The notes under the pieces: generated by a model
What the model saw: only the letters and a program-made list of their open reading frames with translations
Told to the model about the DNA's origin: nothing
Database searches by the model: none
Translations under genes and position numbers: made by a program
Source of the DNA: a virus
Lineage: Duplodnaviria > Caudoviricetes
DNA: 64,000 bases
IMG/VR virus record: IMGVR_UViG_3300035661_000005
Strand: one strand, 5' to 3'
Part shown: positions 13,099-20,352 of the stretch, one piece after another
Layout of the letters: the number at the start of each line of letters is the position of its first letter
Numbering within the stretch: the stretch's first letter is position 1

Positions 13099-15357
13099 AT
13101 GTCGAGGACGTCCACCCCACACTGCTCGTTCTGCAACAAGCCTCGGAACGAGGTGAAGGCCCTCATCGGCAACGACGAGGGTCCGTACATCTGCAACCGT
13201 TGCCTGGAGAACGGCTTCCGGGCGCTCTCGAACGCCCGGAAGGCCGCCGCGCAGACGTCCGCCAAGGACGAGCCCCTCCGCAAGCCGCGGGAGATCAAGG
13301 CGACGCTCGACCAGCACGTCATCGCCCAGGACCGGGCCAAGATGGACATCGCGGTCGCCGTCTACAACCACTACAAGCGGCGCGAGGCGCTCAAAGCGGG
13401 CACCGACCTCGGCGGGGTCGAGATCGCCAAATCGAATATCCTCTTGATGGGGCCCTCCGGCTGCCATCGGCGGGGCCAACGCATCCTCATGTACGACGGA
13501 TCGCTTAAAGCGGTCGAAGACGTGCGGGTGGGGGACTGTGTGATGGGGCCTGACAGCACCCCTCGCAACGTCCTGGAGCTGCACACCGGCACGGAAGAGA
13601 TGGTCGAGATCACCCCGACCAAGGGGGCCCCCTGGGTCGTCAACAAGGGGCACATCTTGACGGTCTTCGAGTACGACAAGGGTCTCGTGGACGTGTCCCT
13701 TCGGGAGTGGTTGGGCTGGTCGGAGAAGCGTCGCACGGAGTCGAAACTCGTGCGCGTGGGCGTGGACTTCCCCCTCTCCGGGAAGACTCTTCCTATCGAG
13801 CCCTACTTTCTCGGGGTTCTGCTCGGAGACGGGTCGTTGGCCCCCCATGTTCGAGTGACCTCGGCGGACTCTGAGATCGTGGCGGCTGTTCGTGCCTGCG
13901 CCCAGGACTTCGGGCTCCAGGTCAACTCTTACGCAAAGGCCACCACTTCGGCCCGTGACTACGTTCTGGCTGGAACGAAGGGCAAACGGAACCCGGTGGC
14001 CGAAGCCCTCGACTCGTTGGGCTTGTGGGGCAGCCGTAGCGAGAACAAGTTCGTCCCTCAGTCGTACCTCACGGCATCGCGTGAAGATCGCTTGGCTCTT
14101 CTCGCTGGTCTGATCGACACCGATGGCTGTTACCGGGACAAGCCCCCTTGCTTCGATTTCACCAGCAAGTCGGAGAAGCTCGCCCAAGATGTCGCCTTCC
14201 TGGCCCGCAGCCTGGGCTTTGCGGCGTATCCCCGGCCGTTCATGAAAGACGGTACGGCGTACTTCCAGATGAGTATCTCGGGGGACATCGACACGATTCC
14301 GGTCAAGGTGGAGCGGAAGAAGGCTCGGGCTCGTCACGAAAATGGGCGGGACGTTCTGCGGGTCGGATTCACGACTCGCGACCTCCCGGCTGAGGAGTAC
14401 TTCGGCTTCGTCCTCGACGGCGACCATCGGTACCTGCTTGACGACTTCACCGTGACCCACAACACCGGCAAGACGGAGATCGCCCGCACGATCTCGAGGA
14501 TGCTCCGGGTGCCTTTCTTCGTCGGTGACGCCTCCCGACTGACCCAGGCGGGCTACGTCGGCGACGACGTGGAGTCCCTCCTCCAGGGGCTCGTGCAGGA
14601 TGCCGACGGAGACGTGGAACGCGCCCAGTGGGGGATCGTCTTCATCGACGAATTCGACAAGCTGGCCCGCAAGTCGGGCCGCGGTGCCACGGGCTACCGT
14701 GACGTCTCTGGGGAGGGTGTGCAGCAGGCCCTCCTCAAGATCCTCGAAGGCTCGAAGATCGTCGTCCCCCGCGGCATGGGGCGGGTCGCGATGGGGTCCG
14801 GTAGCGGGGACGTGTTCGACACCTCCAACGTGCTCTTCATCTGCGCGGGTTCGTTCGCGGGGATCGAGGAGGTCATCGAGAAGCGTGTGAACAACCGGGC
14901 GAGCCTCGGGTTCGGCGCCGCGGAGCGGAAGAAGCTCACCAAGACGGACATCTACCTCCATGTGACCGAGGATGACGTCCTGGAATTCGGCCTCATCCCG
15001 GAGCTGATGGGGCGTCTGCCGGTCTTGACGACGGTCGTGGATCTGACCGAGGATGAGATGGTGCGCATCCTGACGGAGCCGCGGAACGCGATCATCAAGC
15101 AGTTTCAGGCGCTTTTCTCAATCGACGGTATCGACCTCCAGTTCGACGAGGCAGCGCTCCGGGCCATCGCCCGGGAGGCCAAGATGCGGCCCACGGGCGC
15201 CCGTGCCTTGCGCTCCATCGTGGAGAAGGTGCTCCAACCCTACTGCTTCGACGCCCCGAGCGACCCGACCATCAAAGCGCTCCGGGTGACGGAGGAGACG
15301 GTGAACGGGACGGGCAAGGCGATCGTCGTGACCCGTGAGGCTGCCGCCACGGGTTGA
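13099..15357 (+). CDS. clpX: ClpX ATP-dependent unfoldase precursor containing an intein
   Basis: C4 zinc-binding domain CSFC..CNRC, V(I)AQDRAK, GPSG/TGKT Walker A, LTQAGYVGDDV, FIDEFDK, RDVSGEGVQQALLK, GAR.LRSIVE. Confidence 0.97.
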   Translation: MSRTSTPHCSFCNKPRNEVKALIGNDEGPYICNRCLENGFRALSNARKAAAQTSAKDEPLRKPREIKATLDQHVIAQDRAKMDIAVAVYNHYKRREALKAGTDLGGVEIAKSNILLMGPSGCHRRGQRILMYDGSLKAVEDVRVGDCVMGPDSTPRNVLELHTGTEEMVEITPTKGAPWVVNKGHILTVFEYDKGLVDVSLREWLGWSEKRRTESKLVRVGVDFPLSGKTLPIEPYFLGVLLGDGSLAPHVRVTSADSEIVAAVRACAQDFGLQVNSYAKATTSARDYVLAGTKGKRNPVAEALDSLGLWGSRSENKFVPQSYLTASREDRLALLAGLIDTDGCYRDKPPCFDFTSKSEKLAQDVAFLARSLGFAAYPRPFMKDGTAYFQMSISGDIDTIPVKVERKKARARHENGRDVLRVGFTTRDLPAEEYFGFVLDGDHRYLLDDFTVTHNTGKTEIARTISRMLRVPFFVGDASRLTQAGYVGDDVESLLQGLVQDADGDVERAQWGIVFIDEFDKLARKSGRGATGYRDVSGEGVQQALLKILEGSKIVVPRGMGRVAMGSGSGDVFDTSNVLFICAGSFAGIEEVIEKRVNNRASLGFGAAERKKLTKTDIYLHVTEDDVLEFGLIPELMGRLPVLTTVVDLTEDEMVRILTEPRNAIIKQFQALFSIDGIDLQFDEAALRAIAREAKMRPTGARALRSIVEKVLQPYCFDAPSDPTIKALRVTEETVNGTGKAIVVTREAAATG
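13462..14463 (+). mobile_element. Intein (334 aa) with LAGLIDADG endonuclease in the ClpX P-loop
   Basis: GPSG|CHRRGQRILMYDG ... LGVLLGDG, LLAGLIDTDG ... YLLDDFTVTHN|TGKT. Confidence 0.95.
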
Positions 15358-15672: not shown

Positions 15673-16573
15673 GGTCACGGATGCCACGTCGCTGATCGGC
15701 GAAGTGCTGACGCTCGACTACTTCCATCCGGCGAAGAACGGCGCCATCCCGATCCCTGCGCACTTCGTCCGCGGTCCGGCGGAGACCCCGCTCGTCCTCG
15801 TGGTCGGTGAGAACGCGTCGGGCAAGTCGTTCATCCGTCGTCTGGTGACGGCAGTCTGCCGCGAGGTTTCCATCGAGTGTATCCACACCTCGATGGAGGG
15901 CCGCGGGGGCTCTTACGGTGGACTGCGGGGGTTCATCTACGGGGACGAGTCGTGGAAGTCGACGGGGGTGAACTCCGTGGGCACTGTTAGCATGGGGATC
16001 CGTACGTGCCTGGCCCGTGAGAAGTCGCACGTGGTCTTCTGGGACGAGCCTGATCTCGGCCTCTCGGAGAACGGGGCGGCCGGCGTGGGTCAGGCGATCG
16101 CGAGCTACGCGATGAGCCCGAACCCGAAGACGGTTGCGGCCGTCGTCGTGACGCACTCGAAGCCGCTCGTGCAGGAGATCCTGCATCAGTTGACCCCGCA
16201 CTACCTCCACCTCGGTGTGGGTCCTCTCAAGGCGCCCGCGACGCTCGCCGACTGGATCAAGATGCCGGTCGTCCCTCGATCGATCGAAGACATCGAGAAG
16301 GAGGGCCTTCGTCGCTTCAAGTTGATCCAGGCGATCCTGAACAAAAAAGAAAGACTCGTGACTCGCCATCGTGCAGCCAGCTCGTACGGGCACCTCATCC
16401 TGCATCTGGGGGCGGGGAGCTTCCGCATCTCGTGGACGGTGGATCGCTACTACGCGGGTAGCCGTCTTCGATATCCGCGCGGCTTCGAGCGCGTCACGGA
16501 TCTGGCGGGCGCGCGGCGGTTCGCGCGCAAGCACGGTCTCCCGGCCCCTGACTCCAAGGAACATGCGTTATGA
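15647..16573 (+). CDS. ABC/AAA-type P-loop ATPase, possibly fused to a small downstream ORF
   Basis: VVGENASGKS Walker A, VFWDEPDLGL Walker B/D-loop, VVTHS H-loop. Confidence 0.8.
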   Translation: MSKSRRYFEVTDATSLIGEVLTLDYFHPAKNGAIPIPAHFVRGPAETPLVLVVGENASGKSFIRRLVTAVCREVSIECIHTSMEGRGGSYGGLRGFIYGDESWKSTGVNSVGTVSMGIRTCLAREKSHVVFWDEPDLGLSENGAAGVGQAIASYAMSPNPKTVAAVVVTHSKPLVQEILHQLTPHYLHLGVGPLKAPATLADWIKMPVVPRSIEDIEKEGLRRFKLIQAILNKKERLVTRHRAASSYGHLILHLGAGSFRISWTVDRYYAGSRLRYPRGFERVTDLAGARRFARKHGLPAPDSKEHAL

Positions 16574-18768
16574 CCGACAAGCTGGCGCGCCCCAGGATGG
16601 CGGACGAGGTTCTCCGTGGGGACGAACCGGAGATCGGCCGTTGGTACTGGGTCCGTGACGATGCGGACGATGAGCCGTGTCTCGCGTGCGTTGTCACGAT
16701 GGGCTCGAACTTCATCGGCCTTGAGGGGGTTGGTTGCGCCACGCGTATCCACAACGACGACTTCTGGTCCCGTTGTACCTACGAGCCCAACGCCGAGCAG
16801 GTCATCCAGGGGAAGATTCGCGGCTACCAGGAGAACACGAAGCTCCTGGTGCGTAAGGTGCAGGAGATCACGTCGCGTCTCGCGATCACGCCGGGGCTCG
16901 CGCTCTCGGACGGTCAGCCCGAGAAGACGGAGACCGCACTTGTCGCGATGCGTGGGGAGATGCGTCCGGCGAGCGAGTACAAGGCGGCGCTCATCAAAGC
17001 GAAGAAAGAGGATCTCCCGCAGCTCTTCCAAGAGATCGAGAGCAACAACACGGCGATGGGCAGGTGGATGAAGGCCACGCTCATCCCGCTTCGGGCGCAG
17101 GCGGAGGGCCTGAAGTCCACCATTGGAGCGATCGAAGAGCGCATCTTCTCGGTCGAGCTGTACGCAGGTCTCGTTGAGACGGTCACGCAGTTCGCGGACG
17201 GCGCGCCCGCACCGACCCACGAGAAGATCCATCTCTTCCAGCGCCGGCACTACATGGACGAAGAGTGCCTCGTCAACTACGAGACGGGTGGGATGGAGTT
17301 CGCGAACCTCGGCGAGTTCGATCAGTGGCTCGCGCGCCCCGTGAACCGTGATCGCATCCTGCCGTACCCGCGCACCATCGCGGCTTTTCAGGTCCGGCGA
17401 AACCGGAAGGGACGTGACACGCTTAGCCTCAGTGACTTCATCAGTGTCATGGAGTTGGACAAGGCTGACAAGGCGACCTTCCTCTACATCCGCAACGGCG
17501 AGCAGCTCTTCCGCCTGGGCACGGAGATCGACTTCGGGGAGAGACTCTTCCTCGATCTCGATCAGCAGCTCGTCGACCGCGGGACGATCTGGGTCAAGAT
17601 GTCCTGCGGGAAAGTGAAGCGGATGATCTCCGATCACGAGTACCAGGCGATGCTCGAAGAAGAGCGTCGTATTGACGCGGAGTGGGAAAAAGCACCCGAG
17701 ACAGAGAGGTGGCGGCACTCGCACTTTCACGAGACGAGCGAGTACCAGCCCTTCGATCGCTCGAACGTCTACTACGACGAGATCGTGAAGCACCTCGCGG
17801 ATGAGGCCGCGCGCCACAACCGGCTCGTGCTCGTTCTCCAGGGGCTCCTCGATCGATCCCCGGTCATGCACCCGCACCCTGCGTGGTCGCTGTGGACGCC
17901 GGAAGGCTTCACGGCGGGCCTGACGCTCGTCTACGACGATTCTCGTGCTCTGGTCGCGGGGGAGCGCCCGGACTTCGAGGCCTATCGTGCGCGACTGAAT
18001 GCCTCGTTGAAGGCGGGGTCCATCACGGTCGGGCAGGACGACGCCTGGGCCCGTGCGGAAGCCGACAAGGAGTACGAGCGCGAGAGCGCGCGGGGACACG
18101 GGAGTTACCGCCCGACGCACCACCGGCCCTACGGCAACCCCGGCCCCGGGATGCTGGCTCGTGTGGTGCGGTACGCGCCGCGTGCGAAGACCTGCACCTA
18201 CGAATGGGAGCGGCAGCGTCGGACCTACGACGAGGACTACTACAAGGGTCGCCGCACGGTCCCCGTGTCGTTCACGACGGAGACCTCGAACATCTTGAAC
18301 GTCGACGCCTACCGGCCCGGCGACTTCAAGATGTTCTTCAACGACCCGCGCACGCGTGCGGACTACCTGGAGTGGGCGCCGCTGCTCTTGGAGGCCGAGG
18401 AGTACCACGCGGGCAACCGCAAGGTGCAGGAGCCCCCGGTCCCGACCGTCCGCAAGAAGTCCGAAGAGGGTTCCTGGGAGTACGAGAAGCGCAAGTGTCG
18501 TCGAGCCTTGCGAGGGAAGGCGGTGCGCCTTACCCGCGCCGTCACGACGCGGGGCGGGACCAAGTACGAGGTCGGCTCCCTCTGGCGCGTGACGGGCAGT
18601 CACGGCGATCTTTGTACGATCACGGGCATCACGCCGGACGGCAAGACTGAGATGAACGACGCAGGTTGCGTCGCGCGTCTTGTTTGCAACGTCGACTCCT
18701 ACTCGTTCGACGTGGACGAGACGATCCCGAAGGCACCGAAGGCACCGAAGCACGACGACGAGTCGTAG
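16570..18768 (+). CDS. Large hypothetical protein with coiled-coil N-terminal half
   Basis: 732-aa ORF, ATGA coupling, codon bias. Confidence 0.85.
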   Translation: MTDKLARPRMADEVLRGDEPEIGRWYWVRDDADDEPCLACVVTMGSNFIGLEGVGCATRIHNDDFWSRCTYEPNAEQVIQGKIRGYQENTKLLVRKVQEITSRLAITPGLALSDGQPEKTETALVAMRGEMRPASEYKAALIKAKKEDLPQLFQEIESNNTAMGRWMKATLIPLRAQAEGLKSTIGAIEERIFSVELYAGLVETVTQFADGAPAPTHEKIHLFQRRHYMDEECLVNYETGGMEFANLGEFDQWLARPVNRDRILPYPRTIAAFQVRRNRKGRDTLSLSDFISVMELDKADKATFLYIRNGEQLFRLGTEIDFGERLFLDLDQQLVDRGTIWVKMSCGKVKRMISDHEYQAMLEEERRIDAEWEKAPETERWRHSHFHETSEYQPFDRSNVYYDEIVKHLADEAARHNRLVLVLQGLLDRSPVMHPHPAWSLWTPEGFTAGLTLVYDDSRALVAGERPDFEAYRARLNASLKAGSITVGQDDAWARAEADKEYERESARGHGSYRPTHHRPYGNPGPGMLARVVRYAPRAKTCTYEWERQRRTYDEDYYKGRRTVPVSFTTETSNILNVDAYRPGDFKMFFNDPRTRADYLEWAPLLLEAEEYHAGNRKVQEPPVPTVRKKSEEGSWEYEKRKCRRALRGKAVRLTRAVTTRGGTKYEVGSLWRVTGSHGDLCTITGITPDGKTEMNDAGCVARLVCNVDSYSFDVDETIPKAPKAPKHDDES

Positions 18769-18786
18769 CTGGTGTACGTGAGCGGT

Positions 18787-18993
18787 ATGACGACTCGTCC
18801 TACCCCCACCCTCGCGGAACTGCGCGCGCTCTGTAAAGTCGTCTCGACCTGGGTTGACGAGAACCACGTCTACGACGCGGAGACTCTCTACCGGCGTACC
18901 CTGGAGCGAGGGAAACACCGGGTGCTGGCGAGAGAGCTGGGATCAAGTTTTACTGCCGATCTTGTGACAGGATTTCGCACGCGGACGTGGTAG
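18787..18993 (+). CDS. Hypothetical protein
   Basis: GGTGTACG element upstream; weaker codon bias at the 3' end. Confidence 0.45.
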   Translation: MTTRPTPTLAELRALCKVVSTWVDENHVYDAETLYRRTLERGKHRVLARELGSSFTADLVTGFRTRTW

Positions 18994-18994
18994 G

Positions 18995-19197
18995 AGGGAT
19001 CAACTTGCTCGGACGTTCCGAGGACAAACAAGTCGGTCCTGATGATCACCCGTCTGTAGTGAAAGCCATCTTGAGAGAGCGATACCGGATTCGCCGGGAC
19101 AGTTCCTCAAGGGGTAATTTCGCGCTCGTACCGTCGAGCCGGAGGCTTACTACCGAGGGATCTCTTTCGAGAGATATCGGCACAGCTTCAAATCAGG
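18995..19197 (+). ncRNA. Candidate multi-stem structured RNA
   Basis: At least seven nested helices, e.g. CTCGGA/TCCGAG, GTAGT-AAGCC/GGCTT-ACTAC, CTTGAG/CTCAAG, TCTCT-TTCG-AGAGA; strand uncertain. Confidence 0.55.
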
Positions 19198-19262
19198 TGG
19201 CAGCTCATGCATAAGTTTGAGTAACTTCCCGAGTACGGTCCCTGCACTACGACCCTACCCCC

Positions 19263-19373
19263 ATGACGATCGATCTCTCCGGGGACGTGCTCGACTTCCG
19301 ACTCTACGACCGGGACAACGGAGTGGGGGCTGGGGAGAGCGCCGTGCTCGACGCCCTCACGCGCCCATCCTAA
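19263..19373 (+). CDS. 36-aa small ORF (MTIDLSGDVLDFRLYDRDNG...)
   Basis: Codon bias; sits between the two structured RNA candidates. Confidence 0.4.
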   Translation: MTIDLSGDVLDFRLYDRDNGVGAGESAVLDALTRPS

Positions 19374-19513
19374 CGACTTCTCTTATCGGAGGCCCTGGAT
19401 AAGACCACCGCCTCGAAAGTCGTTCAGCGGGCGTTGGGGATCGGTAAGCTGGTTCGGCCCAACTTCCAGCAGATCGCCAGGTTCAGCGTGGGCCTCCCGA
19501 CAGAAACGCTGAG
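19374..19513 (+). ncRNA. Candidate double-pseudoknot RNA
   Basis: Stems CGACTT/AAGTCG, TCTTATC/GATAAGA, GCTGG/CCAGC, TCAGCGT/ACGCTGA; loop GGAGGCCC complementary to loop GGGCCTCC; GTTGGG complementary to loop CCCAAC. Confidence 0.65.
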
Positions 19514-19557
19514 TACGGTTTCCGGCAGGTCTTCCTCTATTCCATCTAGGCACGATC

Positions 19558-20352
19558 ATGGACCCCAAGGCACCCAAGGTTATGGCCCGGTTCGCAGCGG
19601 CGGTCCTGCCGTTCAAGCCGAAGCCGAAAGTCCCAACCACGACGATTCGCGGGGACAAGTACGTCCTCTCGACCTTCGGTGGGATGCTCGGTGACCGGGA
19701 GGATGACGAGGCCAGCATGTTCGGCGGGCGTCTCATCGGACCGCCCCCGGGTGCGAACAAGTGGTGCTACCTCTGGGTCTACGATACCGAGCGCCAGGTC
19801 GTGGCCATGTGGCGGGCTTCGGACGGGGACGAGAAGTACCACGGGTCCCCCCGTTCCGCGACGAGCTACATCGTCATGCTGGACAAGCGGGGGCAGCTCA
19901 ACCGCGTCACCAACGCCGAATTCCGGGTCATCGAGTCCGAGATGCGGCAGCGGGAGGACGCGGCCATCAAGAGCATGCAGCAGACACTCGAAGAGGCCAA
20001 GAGCGAGGCCGAGCGTTCGCTCGACGACTACATTCGGACCTTCTTCGAGAAGTTCGTCCTGCCGAAGCTCCTTCGGGGCCTCTCGGACGTGAAGTCTGGG
20101 GCGACGCCGATCGGGTTCCGGCCGTTCGGACCGGCGGCGGAGGGTGATGCGGCTTGGCTCCTTCGGCAGAAGTCCAGTTACGTCCTCGGGGAGGTGTTCA
20201 AGCGCGAGATGGACCCAGAGAAGGTCGTCATGTGGCTCGAAGGACAGGGCTTCAACGTCGGCATCGTCCACAACCAGGCGATCGATTGGGCGATCGGGGA
20301 CGTGCGGGACGAGGCTGCGGAGAGGTACTTGCCCAAGGCGCCGTACGTTTGA
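19558..20352 (+). CDS. Hypothetical protein with N-terminal KVMARF tag
   Basis: Codon bias; MDPKAPKVMARFAAA. Confidence 0.8.
   Translation: MDPKAPKVMARFAAAVLPFKPKPKVPTTTIRGDKYVLSTFGGMLGDREDDEASMFGGRLIGPPPGANKWCYLWVYDTERQVVAMWRASDGDEKYHGSPRSATSYIVMLDKRGQLNRVTNAEFRVIESEMRQREDAAIKSMQQTLEEAKSEAERSLDDYIRTFFEKFVLPKLLRGLSDVKSGATPIGFRPFGPAAEGDAAWLLRQKSSYVLGEVFKREMDPEKVVMWLEGQGFNVGIVHNQAIDWAIGDVRDEAAERYLPKAPYV

Follow-up and report, generated by a model that had tools for sequence, protein, structure and literature searches.

A structured RNA in a huge phage is very probably the omegaRNA scaffold of an IS607-family TnpB element that has lost its nuclease gene

In TnpB systems, the scaffold of a structured RNA (omegaRNA or reRNA) binds the TnpB protein, and the sequence flanking the right end of the element guides cleavage of sites that lack the element, beside a target-adjacent motif, which favours retention and homing of the element (PMC8612924; PMC10055086; PMC11061315). 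In IS607 elements, each terminus as well as the target has a GG (PMC6188088), and gene-less derivatives of IS200/IS605 elements, the PATEs, encode omegaRNAs that are thought to be used by TnpB in trans (PMC10055086). Orphan and TnpB-linked omegaRNA elements are hence a known kind; in a limited, non-exhaustive literature search, we found no description of IS607 mini-elements with an omegaRNA in phages.

The locus described here resembles the omegaRNAs of ISDra2 TnpB (PMC8612924) and of the IS607 element ISFba1, whose TnpB uses a RAGATH-18-derived reRNA (PMC11061315), in that the RNA overlaps the 3' end of tnpB and reaches the right end of the element. As in other OMEGA systems, a variable flank takes the position of the guide, and the protein of its relatives combines a RuvC D-E-D triad with a zinc ribbon. 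The serine TnpA of some related copies and the GG termini are features of IS607. Unlike the RAGATH-18 reRNA, the RNA matches neither RAGATH-18 nor any other Rfam family; the proteins of the family have about 470-500 aa, compared to an average of 390 aa in RAGATH-18-linked IS607 TnpBs (PMC11061315); and the scaffold, with about 245-250 nt and 12 helices, is longer than those of known TnpB omegaRNAs. Differing from known TnpB systems, all copies come from phage or metagenome contigs and the copy under study has no nuclease gene. Like PATEs (Meers et al. 2023, PMC10055086), the protein-less derivatives in its relatives keep the ends and the scaffold, occur in several copies beside intact TnpB and presumably rely on TnpA and TnpB supplied in trans. 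In contrast to the IS200/IS605 parents of PATEs, the parent here is of the IS607 type (serine recombinase) and resides in huge phages, the deletion junctions lie 27-49 nt before the first helix, and the left end of the copy under study is only a candidate. CasPhi (Cas12j) also occurs in huge phages, and the family matches CasPhi-3 (7odf) by sequence; it differs from CasPhi in having no CRISPR array, a TnpB about 300 aa shorter and a guide taken from the transposon flank.

The window, by which we mean the whole stretch of 64,000 nt (64 kb) that was analysed, is phage-like with 62-69% GC. The RNA region is neighboured by a plus-strand gene at 16570-18768 (732 aa, function not assigned), a 73-aa ORF at 18772-18993 and the next long gene at 19558. 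We conclude with high confidence that 18988-19238 on the plus strand is an omegaRNA scaffold that belongs to a non-autonomous TnpB element of the IS607 family, carried by a huge phage. The features are as follows, with the evidence in brackets; the helices were placed by mapping alignment columns to coordinates.

18772-18852, plus strand: 5' part of a small phage ORF (the 73-aa ORF), possible left flank of an insertion (ORF list, codon-like composition)
18853-18938, plus strand: candidate left end of a mini-element, alternatively ordinary phage coding DNA (start motif, length)
18939-19214, plus strand: TnpB-like C-terminal remnant (tblastn, family HMM, DNA homology, GC3)
18954-18965, plus strand: second CxxC (frame of the TnpB remnant)
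18978-18986, plus strand: RuvC-III His-Ala-Asp (frame of the TnpB remnant)
18988-19238, plus strand: omegaRNA scaffold, very probable (nhmmer, 21-copy alignment, RNAalifold, pair counts with controls, column map)
18996-98/19038-40, plus strand: helix H1
18999-19007/19029-37, plus strand: helix H2
19009-13/19017-21, plus strand: helix H3
From 19065-67, plus strand: helix H4
19071-80/19102-10, plus strand: helix H5
19085-87/19095-97, plus strand: helix H6
19124-27/19136-39, plus strand: helix H8
19142-47/19184-89, plus strand: helix H9
19153-56/19177-80, plus strand: helix H10
19161-64/19171-74, plus strand: helix H11
19193-97/19228-32, plus strand: helix H12
19237-19238, plus strand: GG at the transposon right end, ...GAGTACGG/T (end of homology in all copies, IS607 GG rule)
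19239-19258, plus strand: guide position, the flank that would be the 3' guide of the omegaRNA, length inferred (copy-specific sequence)
19239-19373, plus strand: gene-like frame holding a 36-aa ORF (19263-19373), possible 3' part of an interrupted gene (GC1/2/3)

The first-pass annotation had proposed a multi-helix RNA at 18995-19197, and the helices that it named are all present in the sequence at the positions given. On the plus strand, this segment folds with a minimum free energy of -76.3 kcal/mol (z = -2.84; one of 200 dinucleotide shuffles was as good), while the same test gave z = -1.38 for the minus strand. The full element (18988-19239, plus strand) reaches -92.5 kcal/mol and z = -2.94, so that the comparison with dinucleotide-shuffled controls suggested in that annotation came out in favour of structure at z about -2.9. 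The reported lack of GC3 bias was also borne out, as GC3 is 0.50-0.54 in the open frame over the RNA and 0.82-0.87 in the neighbouring genes. The search with Infernal against Rfam, likewise suggested there, returned zero families at gathering score for the whole window and zero families at E up to 10 for 18700-19700, with the RAGATH-18 model included. The spacer DNA had no blastn match among GenBank phages.

Homologues were found by other means. With the spacer as query, nhmmer was run on loci collected via the upstream gene and returned a single, unexpected hit at another place in a related contig, with conserved blocks and compensating changes. The pattern GCTTACTACC-N15-45-GGCACAGCTT was present at 13 places in IMG/VR contigs (several per contig) and in 82 metagenome stretches; ten further hits in GTDB genomes are not members of the family, scoring at most 14 bits with the covariance model. 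All copies found are located on phage or metagenome contigs. From these huge-phage and metagenome contigs we aligned 21 distinct copies of about 250 nt (alignment A3) and derived a consensus with RNAalifold, which comprises 56 pairs in 12 helices. Changes on both sides occur in 39 of the 56 pairs. Across the consensus, 93.0% of the cells are paired versus 76.3% in shuffles (none of 500 reached 93.0%) and at most 49% with the partners slid, and the covariation score of the consensus pairs is 0.566 versus 0.252. The window copy forms 52 of the 56 pairs. Since G-U pairs fix the strand, the conserved RNA was assigned to the plus strand.

Seven of the helices named in the annotation recur in the 21-copy consensus, namely GGGATC/GGTCCT (H1/H2), ACTTG/CAAGT (H2), CTCGGA/TCCGAG (H3), CTTGAG/CTCAAG (H5), CCGG/CCGG (H6), GCTCG/CGAGC (H8) and TCTCT-UUCG-AGAGA (H11). 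The eighth, GTAGT-AAGCC/GGCTT-ACTAC, was rejected: it is paired in 67.1% compared to a shuffle mean of 66.5%, a value reached by 160 of 500 shuffles, shows no covariation and competes with the supported helices H4, H9 and H10. A conserved multi-helix RNA on the plus strand is hence upheld by the covariation, but the proposed end falls 41 nt short of the element, which extends to 19238/19239 and includes H12, and the RNA is not an independent phage ncRNA but is embedded in the 3' end of a TnpB remnant. Searches of the 64-kb window with nhmmer and with R1, a covariance model of the 3' core, each gave this one copy (116 bits, E 2.6e-30 with R1).

In the relatives, the RNA lies within the last ~85 codons of a TnpB of 470-500 aa in every full-length homologue. 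The stop-to-stop frames at the RNA in four of them (L015, L021, L023, L024) span 480-553 aa, of which TnpB proper takes about 470-500 aa, and contain the motifs GVDVG, VVEDLD, CxxC...CxxC and HAD. Relatives' frames match Pfam PF07282 (Cas12f1-like_TNB) above its cutoff and NCBIfam guided_TnpB with E 5e-26 and 92 bits, which is below the curated cutoff of 100. The D-E-D residues and all four cysteines are invariant in 22 of 22 full-length proteins. An IS607 serine transposase (NF033518, E 1e-58, 195-199 bits versus a cutoff of 110) is encoded directly upstream of tnpB in L145 and L147, and most other relatives are TnpB-only units of ~1.5 kb. The best solved-structure match by sequence for the family TnpB (alignment A2) is CasPhi-3 (7odf, E 2e-11), ahead of Cas12f and TnpB, with the match limited to ~45 residues of the zinc-ribbon/RuvC-III region. 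An omegaRNA family outside Rfam, phage TnpBs of ~475 aa that are nearest to CasPhi-3 by sequence and convergent mini-element junctions (see below) are what is specific here.

The window retains only the end of this gene. With full-length relatives as queries, tblastn matches in the 64-kb window are confined to 18891-19205, and the family TnpB HMM aligns solely with its positions 375-473 of 475 (E 5e-30), corresponding to about the last 100 codons. DNA homology with the closest intact copies (L156/L179) begins at ~18934-18939, and the tail starts at -49 from the first helix, as in the mini-element of the relative G005 (see below). The frame is open over 118 codons (18858-19214), yet a start codon, GTG, does not appear in it until 18987, downstream of the zinc-ribbon half. 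The second CxxC and the RuvC-III motif are present; the first CxxC, RuvC-I and RuvC-II are absent from the remnant, a serine-recombinase TnpA is absent upstream of it in the window, and neither tblastn nor the family HMM detected another TnpB of the family within the 64 kb. The cognate TnpB is not encoded in cis, and the window copy is therefore an orphan scaffold and not a complete system.

At the right end, homology among all copies stops after ...ACGG(T), i.e. at 19238/19239, and the sequence beyond differs in every copy. The right end reads ...ACGG in nearly all copies, and left ends start with (G)GGT; the flanks before the left ends of the relatives have only a G, mostly RG, in common before GGT. 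No second site in the window matches the 16-mer at 19240-19255, which lies in the guide position, better than chance would give.

In several relatives, tail-plus-omegaRNA units without the rest of the gene are found beside intact TnpBs. Whole-record searches revealed three intact TnpBs and at least four such units in G003, two intact copies and one unit in G005, and three intact copies and two units in G004. Three G003 units have only a common segment of 355 nt at 88-90% identity, with unrelated flanks, which marks them as mobile. Their left end, starting with GGGTACTTGACAG, is joined 27-31 nt before the RNA, while the G005 unit has its own left end joined at -49; for the G004 units, only a left-end-like start motif was seen upstream. 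In the gene-less derivatives of G003, G005 and G004 (loci L262-L268) and in the metagenome copies L222, L187 and L200, the ribosome-binding site, the start codon and ~1.15 kb of tnpB are deleted. Alignment places the fusion of the left end 27-49 nt before helix 1 in G003, G005 and L222/L187/L200, and the left end of the copies sampled (G003a, L222/L187/L200) contains a promoter-like motif, TTGACA-17-TAAAGT. Similar junctions in at least three subfamilies, independently formed, suggest selection for a minimal promoter-plus-omegaRNA unit. Other remnants are cut elsewhere: L022 keeps HMM positions 253-438 and L229 positions 346-462, and the truncation lies inside the RNA itself in L013, L231, L012, L016 and L017. 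G001 (complete, 529 kb) has one copy, next to a truncated TnpB, and lacks any intact TnpB of the family, which shows that remnants of this kind can be plain relics.

The tail frames of the G003 units at G003:C1:185671-185937, 120829-121098 and 168327-168593 are open over 98-101 codons although their sequences diverge by 10-12%. Candidate causes are a constraint on the RNA, gene conversion by the intact copies or translation into a peptide.

Whether the window copy is itself such a mini-element depends on its left side. At 18851-18859, GGGTTGACG is similar to the sequences with which the left ends of three subfamilies begin (GGGGTACTTGACAG, GGGGTTGCGAACTGTTGACG, GGGTTGTCAACAG) and provides a candidate left GG at 18851-18853; the resulting left end of 86 nt is in the size range of the relatives' left ends fused to the omegaRNA. 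We detected no wider similarity of 18650-18960 to any left end and no sigma-70 promoter or terminator consensus in 18500-19700. The codon-like periodicity of 18853-18933 in the frame of the 73-aa ORF (0.74/0.37/0.78) speaks against a left end. If 18772-18852 is joined to 19239-19373 over one GG, a single open frame of 71 aa results, which continues into the frame of the 36-aa ORF with its high GC3; the alternative GG register is out of frame, and as only one of the two registers works, we do not count this restoration as proof of the left end. Were the join true, 18853-19238 would be a complete mini-element of 386 nt inside a small phage gene. The 73-aa ORF and the frame at 19239-19370 had no homologues except the window's own 36-aa product, which is on record on five contigs, the longest of 200,835 bases. 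No empty site was found via the upstream 732-aa gene, as 12 relatives have only that gene in common. On balance, we give a plain 5'-truncated relic about an even chance, and a complete gene-less mini-element, with a left end at 18853-18938 fused to the tail, is a serious but somewhat less probable option.

The relatives suggest how such a cassette could work. Intact units of ~1.5 kb consist of a left end with a predicted promoter, a gene for a TnpB of 470-500 aa and an RNA of ~250 nt within its last ~85 codons, and the DNA directly beyond the right end would be transcribed as the guide. With everything upstream of the last ~100 tnpB codons missing, the window copy amounts to a guide-RNA cassette without a nuclease. 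We infer that it may be transcribed, bound by TnpB in trans and put to use with its flank as guide. The transcript could start in its own left end or result from read-through from the upstream plus-strand genes, which is possible because there is no terminator between the upstream gene and the RNA. If transcribed, the scaffold could be bound by a TnpB made elsewhere in the phage genome, which would then be led to insertion sites that lack the element (target-adjacent motif followed by the sequence from 19239 onward), with homing and retention as the outcome. A block of 9.4 kb located ~68-78 kb upstream of the window in the same genome has 29 of 132 short words in common with 18940-19239 in a word index, and possibly represents an intact element of this TnpB family.

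It may further be speculated that the cassette is maintained as a spare guide, a complete 386-nt IS607 mini-element that supplies its omegaRNA to a TnpB encoded at another site of this ~200-kb phage, so that the nuclease cuts co-infecting relatives without the insertion in the small gene. We consider this unlikely. If it were true, it would amount to RNA-guided homing or competition between phages, and the junctions 27-49 nt before helix 1 would mark the minimal functional omegaRNA unit.

The alternatives to an omegaRNA scaffold differ widely in how well they fit these data. A free-standing regulatory ncRNA or leader of the phage, unrelated to transposons and possibly part of a larger locus with downstream elements, would agree with the significant folding, the intergenic-looking place between plus-strand genes and the low GC3. 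It is nevertheless scarcely credible, given that the full-length homologues are without exception 3' ends of TnpB genes, that homology ends at 19238/19239 and that Rfam is empty even at E up to 10. The annotation had envisaged such a larger locus, an RNA of ~520 nt together with the 36-aa ORF and a pseudoknotted element. This is not supported because the homology stops at 19238/19239, which matches the layout of an omegaRNA, with downstream DNA that differs per copy; moreover, 19239-19373 has a gene-like codon composition (GC1/2/3 = 0.69/0.44/0.84; GC3 of the 36-aa ORF 0.84). Conservation at the level of a small protein, a C-terminal TnpB peptide encoded by the open frame (18858/18987-19214), could draw on the 118 open codons, on the three open mini-element tails of G003 and on the motifs RRLTT and GTASN, which are conserved as amino acids. 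Against this stand the GC3, far from that of the phage genes, the position of the first start codon after the zinc-ribbon half and the stop in the tail frame of the G005 mini copy; paired columns also change on both sides while keeping the base pairs, which a protein constraint does not predict. We therefore regard a conserved peptide as very improbable.

More weight has to be given to the possibility that the omegaRNA scaffold is inert, a decaying right-end fragment of an IS607/TnpB element left after a deletion, with a fold that is inherited but unused. The window contains no TnpB, a single copy of the RNA and no recognisable left end or promoter; the relatives form a continuum of truncations (L022 and L229, as well as the five copies cut into the RNA), and the complete G001 has a truncated copy only. 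However, the scaffold is preserved as well as the scaffolds that adjoin working genes, with 52 of 56 pairs formed and an nhmmer score of 230 compared to 144-218 for copies adjoining full genes. In addition, its 5' boundary at -49 falls in the same narrow zone as in the independently formed mobile mini-elements, and a related stretch seemingly exists elsewhere in the same genome, in the block with 29 of 132 short words. Taken together, we rate inertness at slightly below even odds.

The identification of 18988-19238 as an omegaRNA scaffold accounts for a structured RNA of a huge phage that had looked like an orphan, and supplies a model, backed by covariation, of an omegaRNA family that Rfam does not contain. 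It also shows that elements of the IS607 type in huge phages give rise to derivatives with a guide RNA but no gene, whose strikingly similar deletion junctions could mark the smallest scaffold that these nucleases require. In genome annotation, 'intergenic structured RNAs' of phages may turn out to be TnpB tails where short open frames poor in GC3 lie next to them.

Some additional observations concern the relatives and the surroundings of the locus. A shorter core variant (GCTTACTACC...GGCACAGCTT, model positions ~130-215) is located at the ends of the contigs L205, L232, L239, L025 and ~15 others. L205, L232 and L239 are peat-bog metagenome contigs. Three contigs of 2-4.6 kb carry the variant at both ends in inverted orientation, and it could be a high-copy repeat at which assemblies break off, or else a separate element that ends in terminal inverted repeats. 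The complete G001 encodes an 806-aa ORF with a TNB-like domain (G001:C1:502092-502283), possibly a CasPhi-like protein. In the window, the last ~110 residues of the 732-aa protein (18430-18768) are unmatched in 12 of 12 huge-phage homologues, which align to residues 1 to ~620 only, and this tail ends 3 nt before the 73-aa ORF. Further upstream, a ClpX-like AAA+ gene at 13099-15357 (PF06689, PF07724) is interrupted by a Hint/LAGLIDADG intein (PF05203, PF14528, PF05204).
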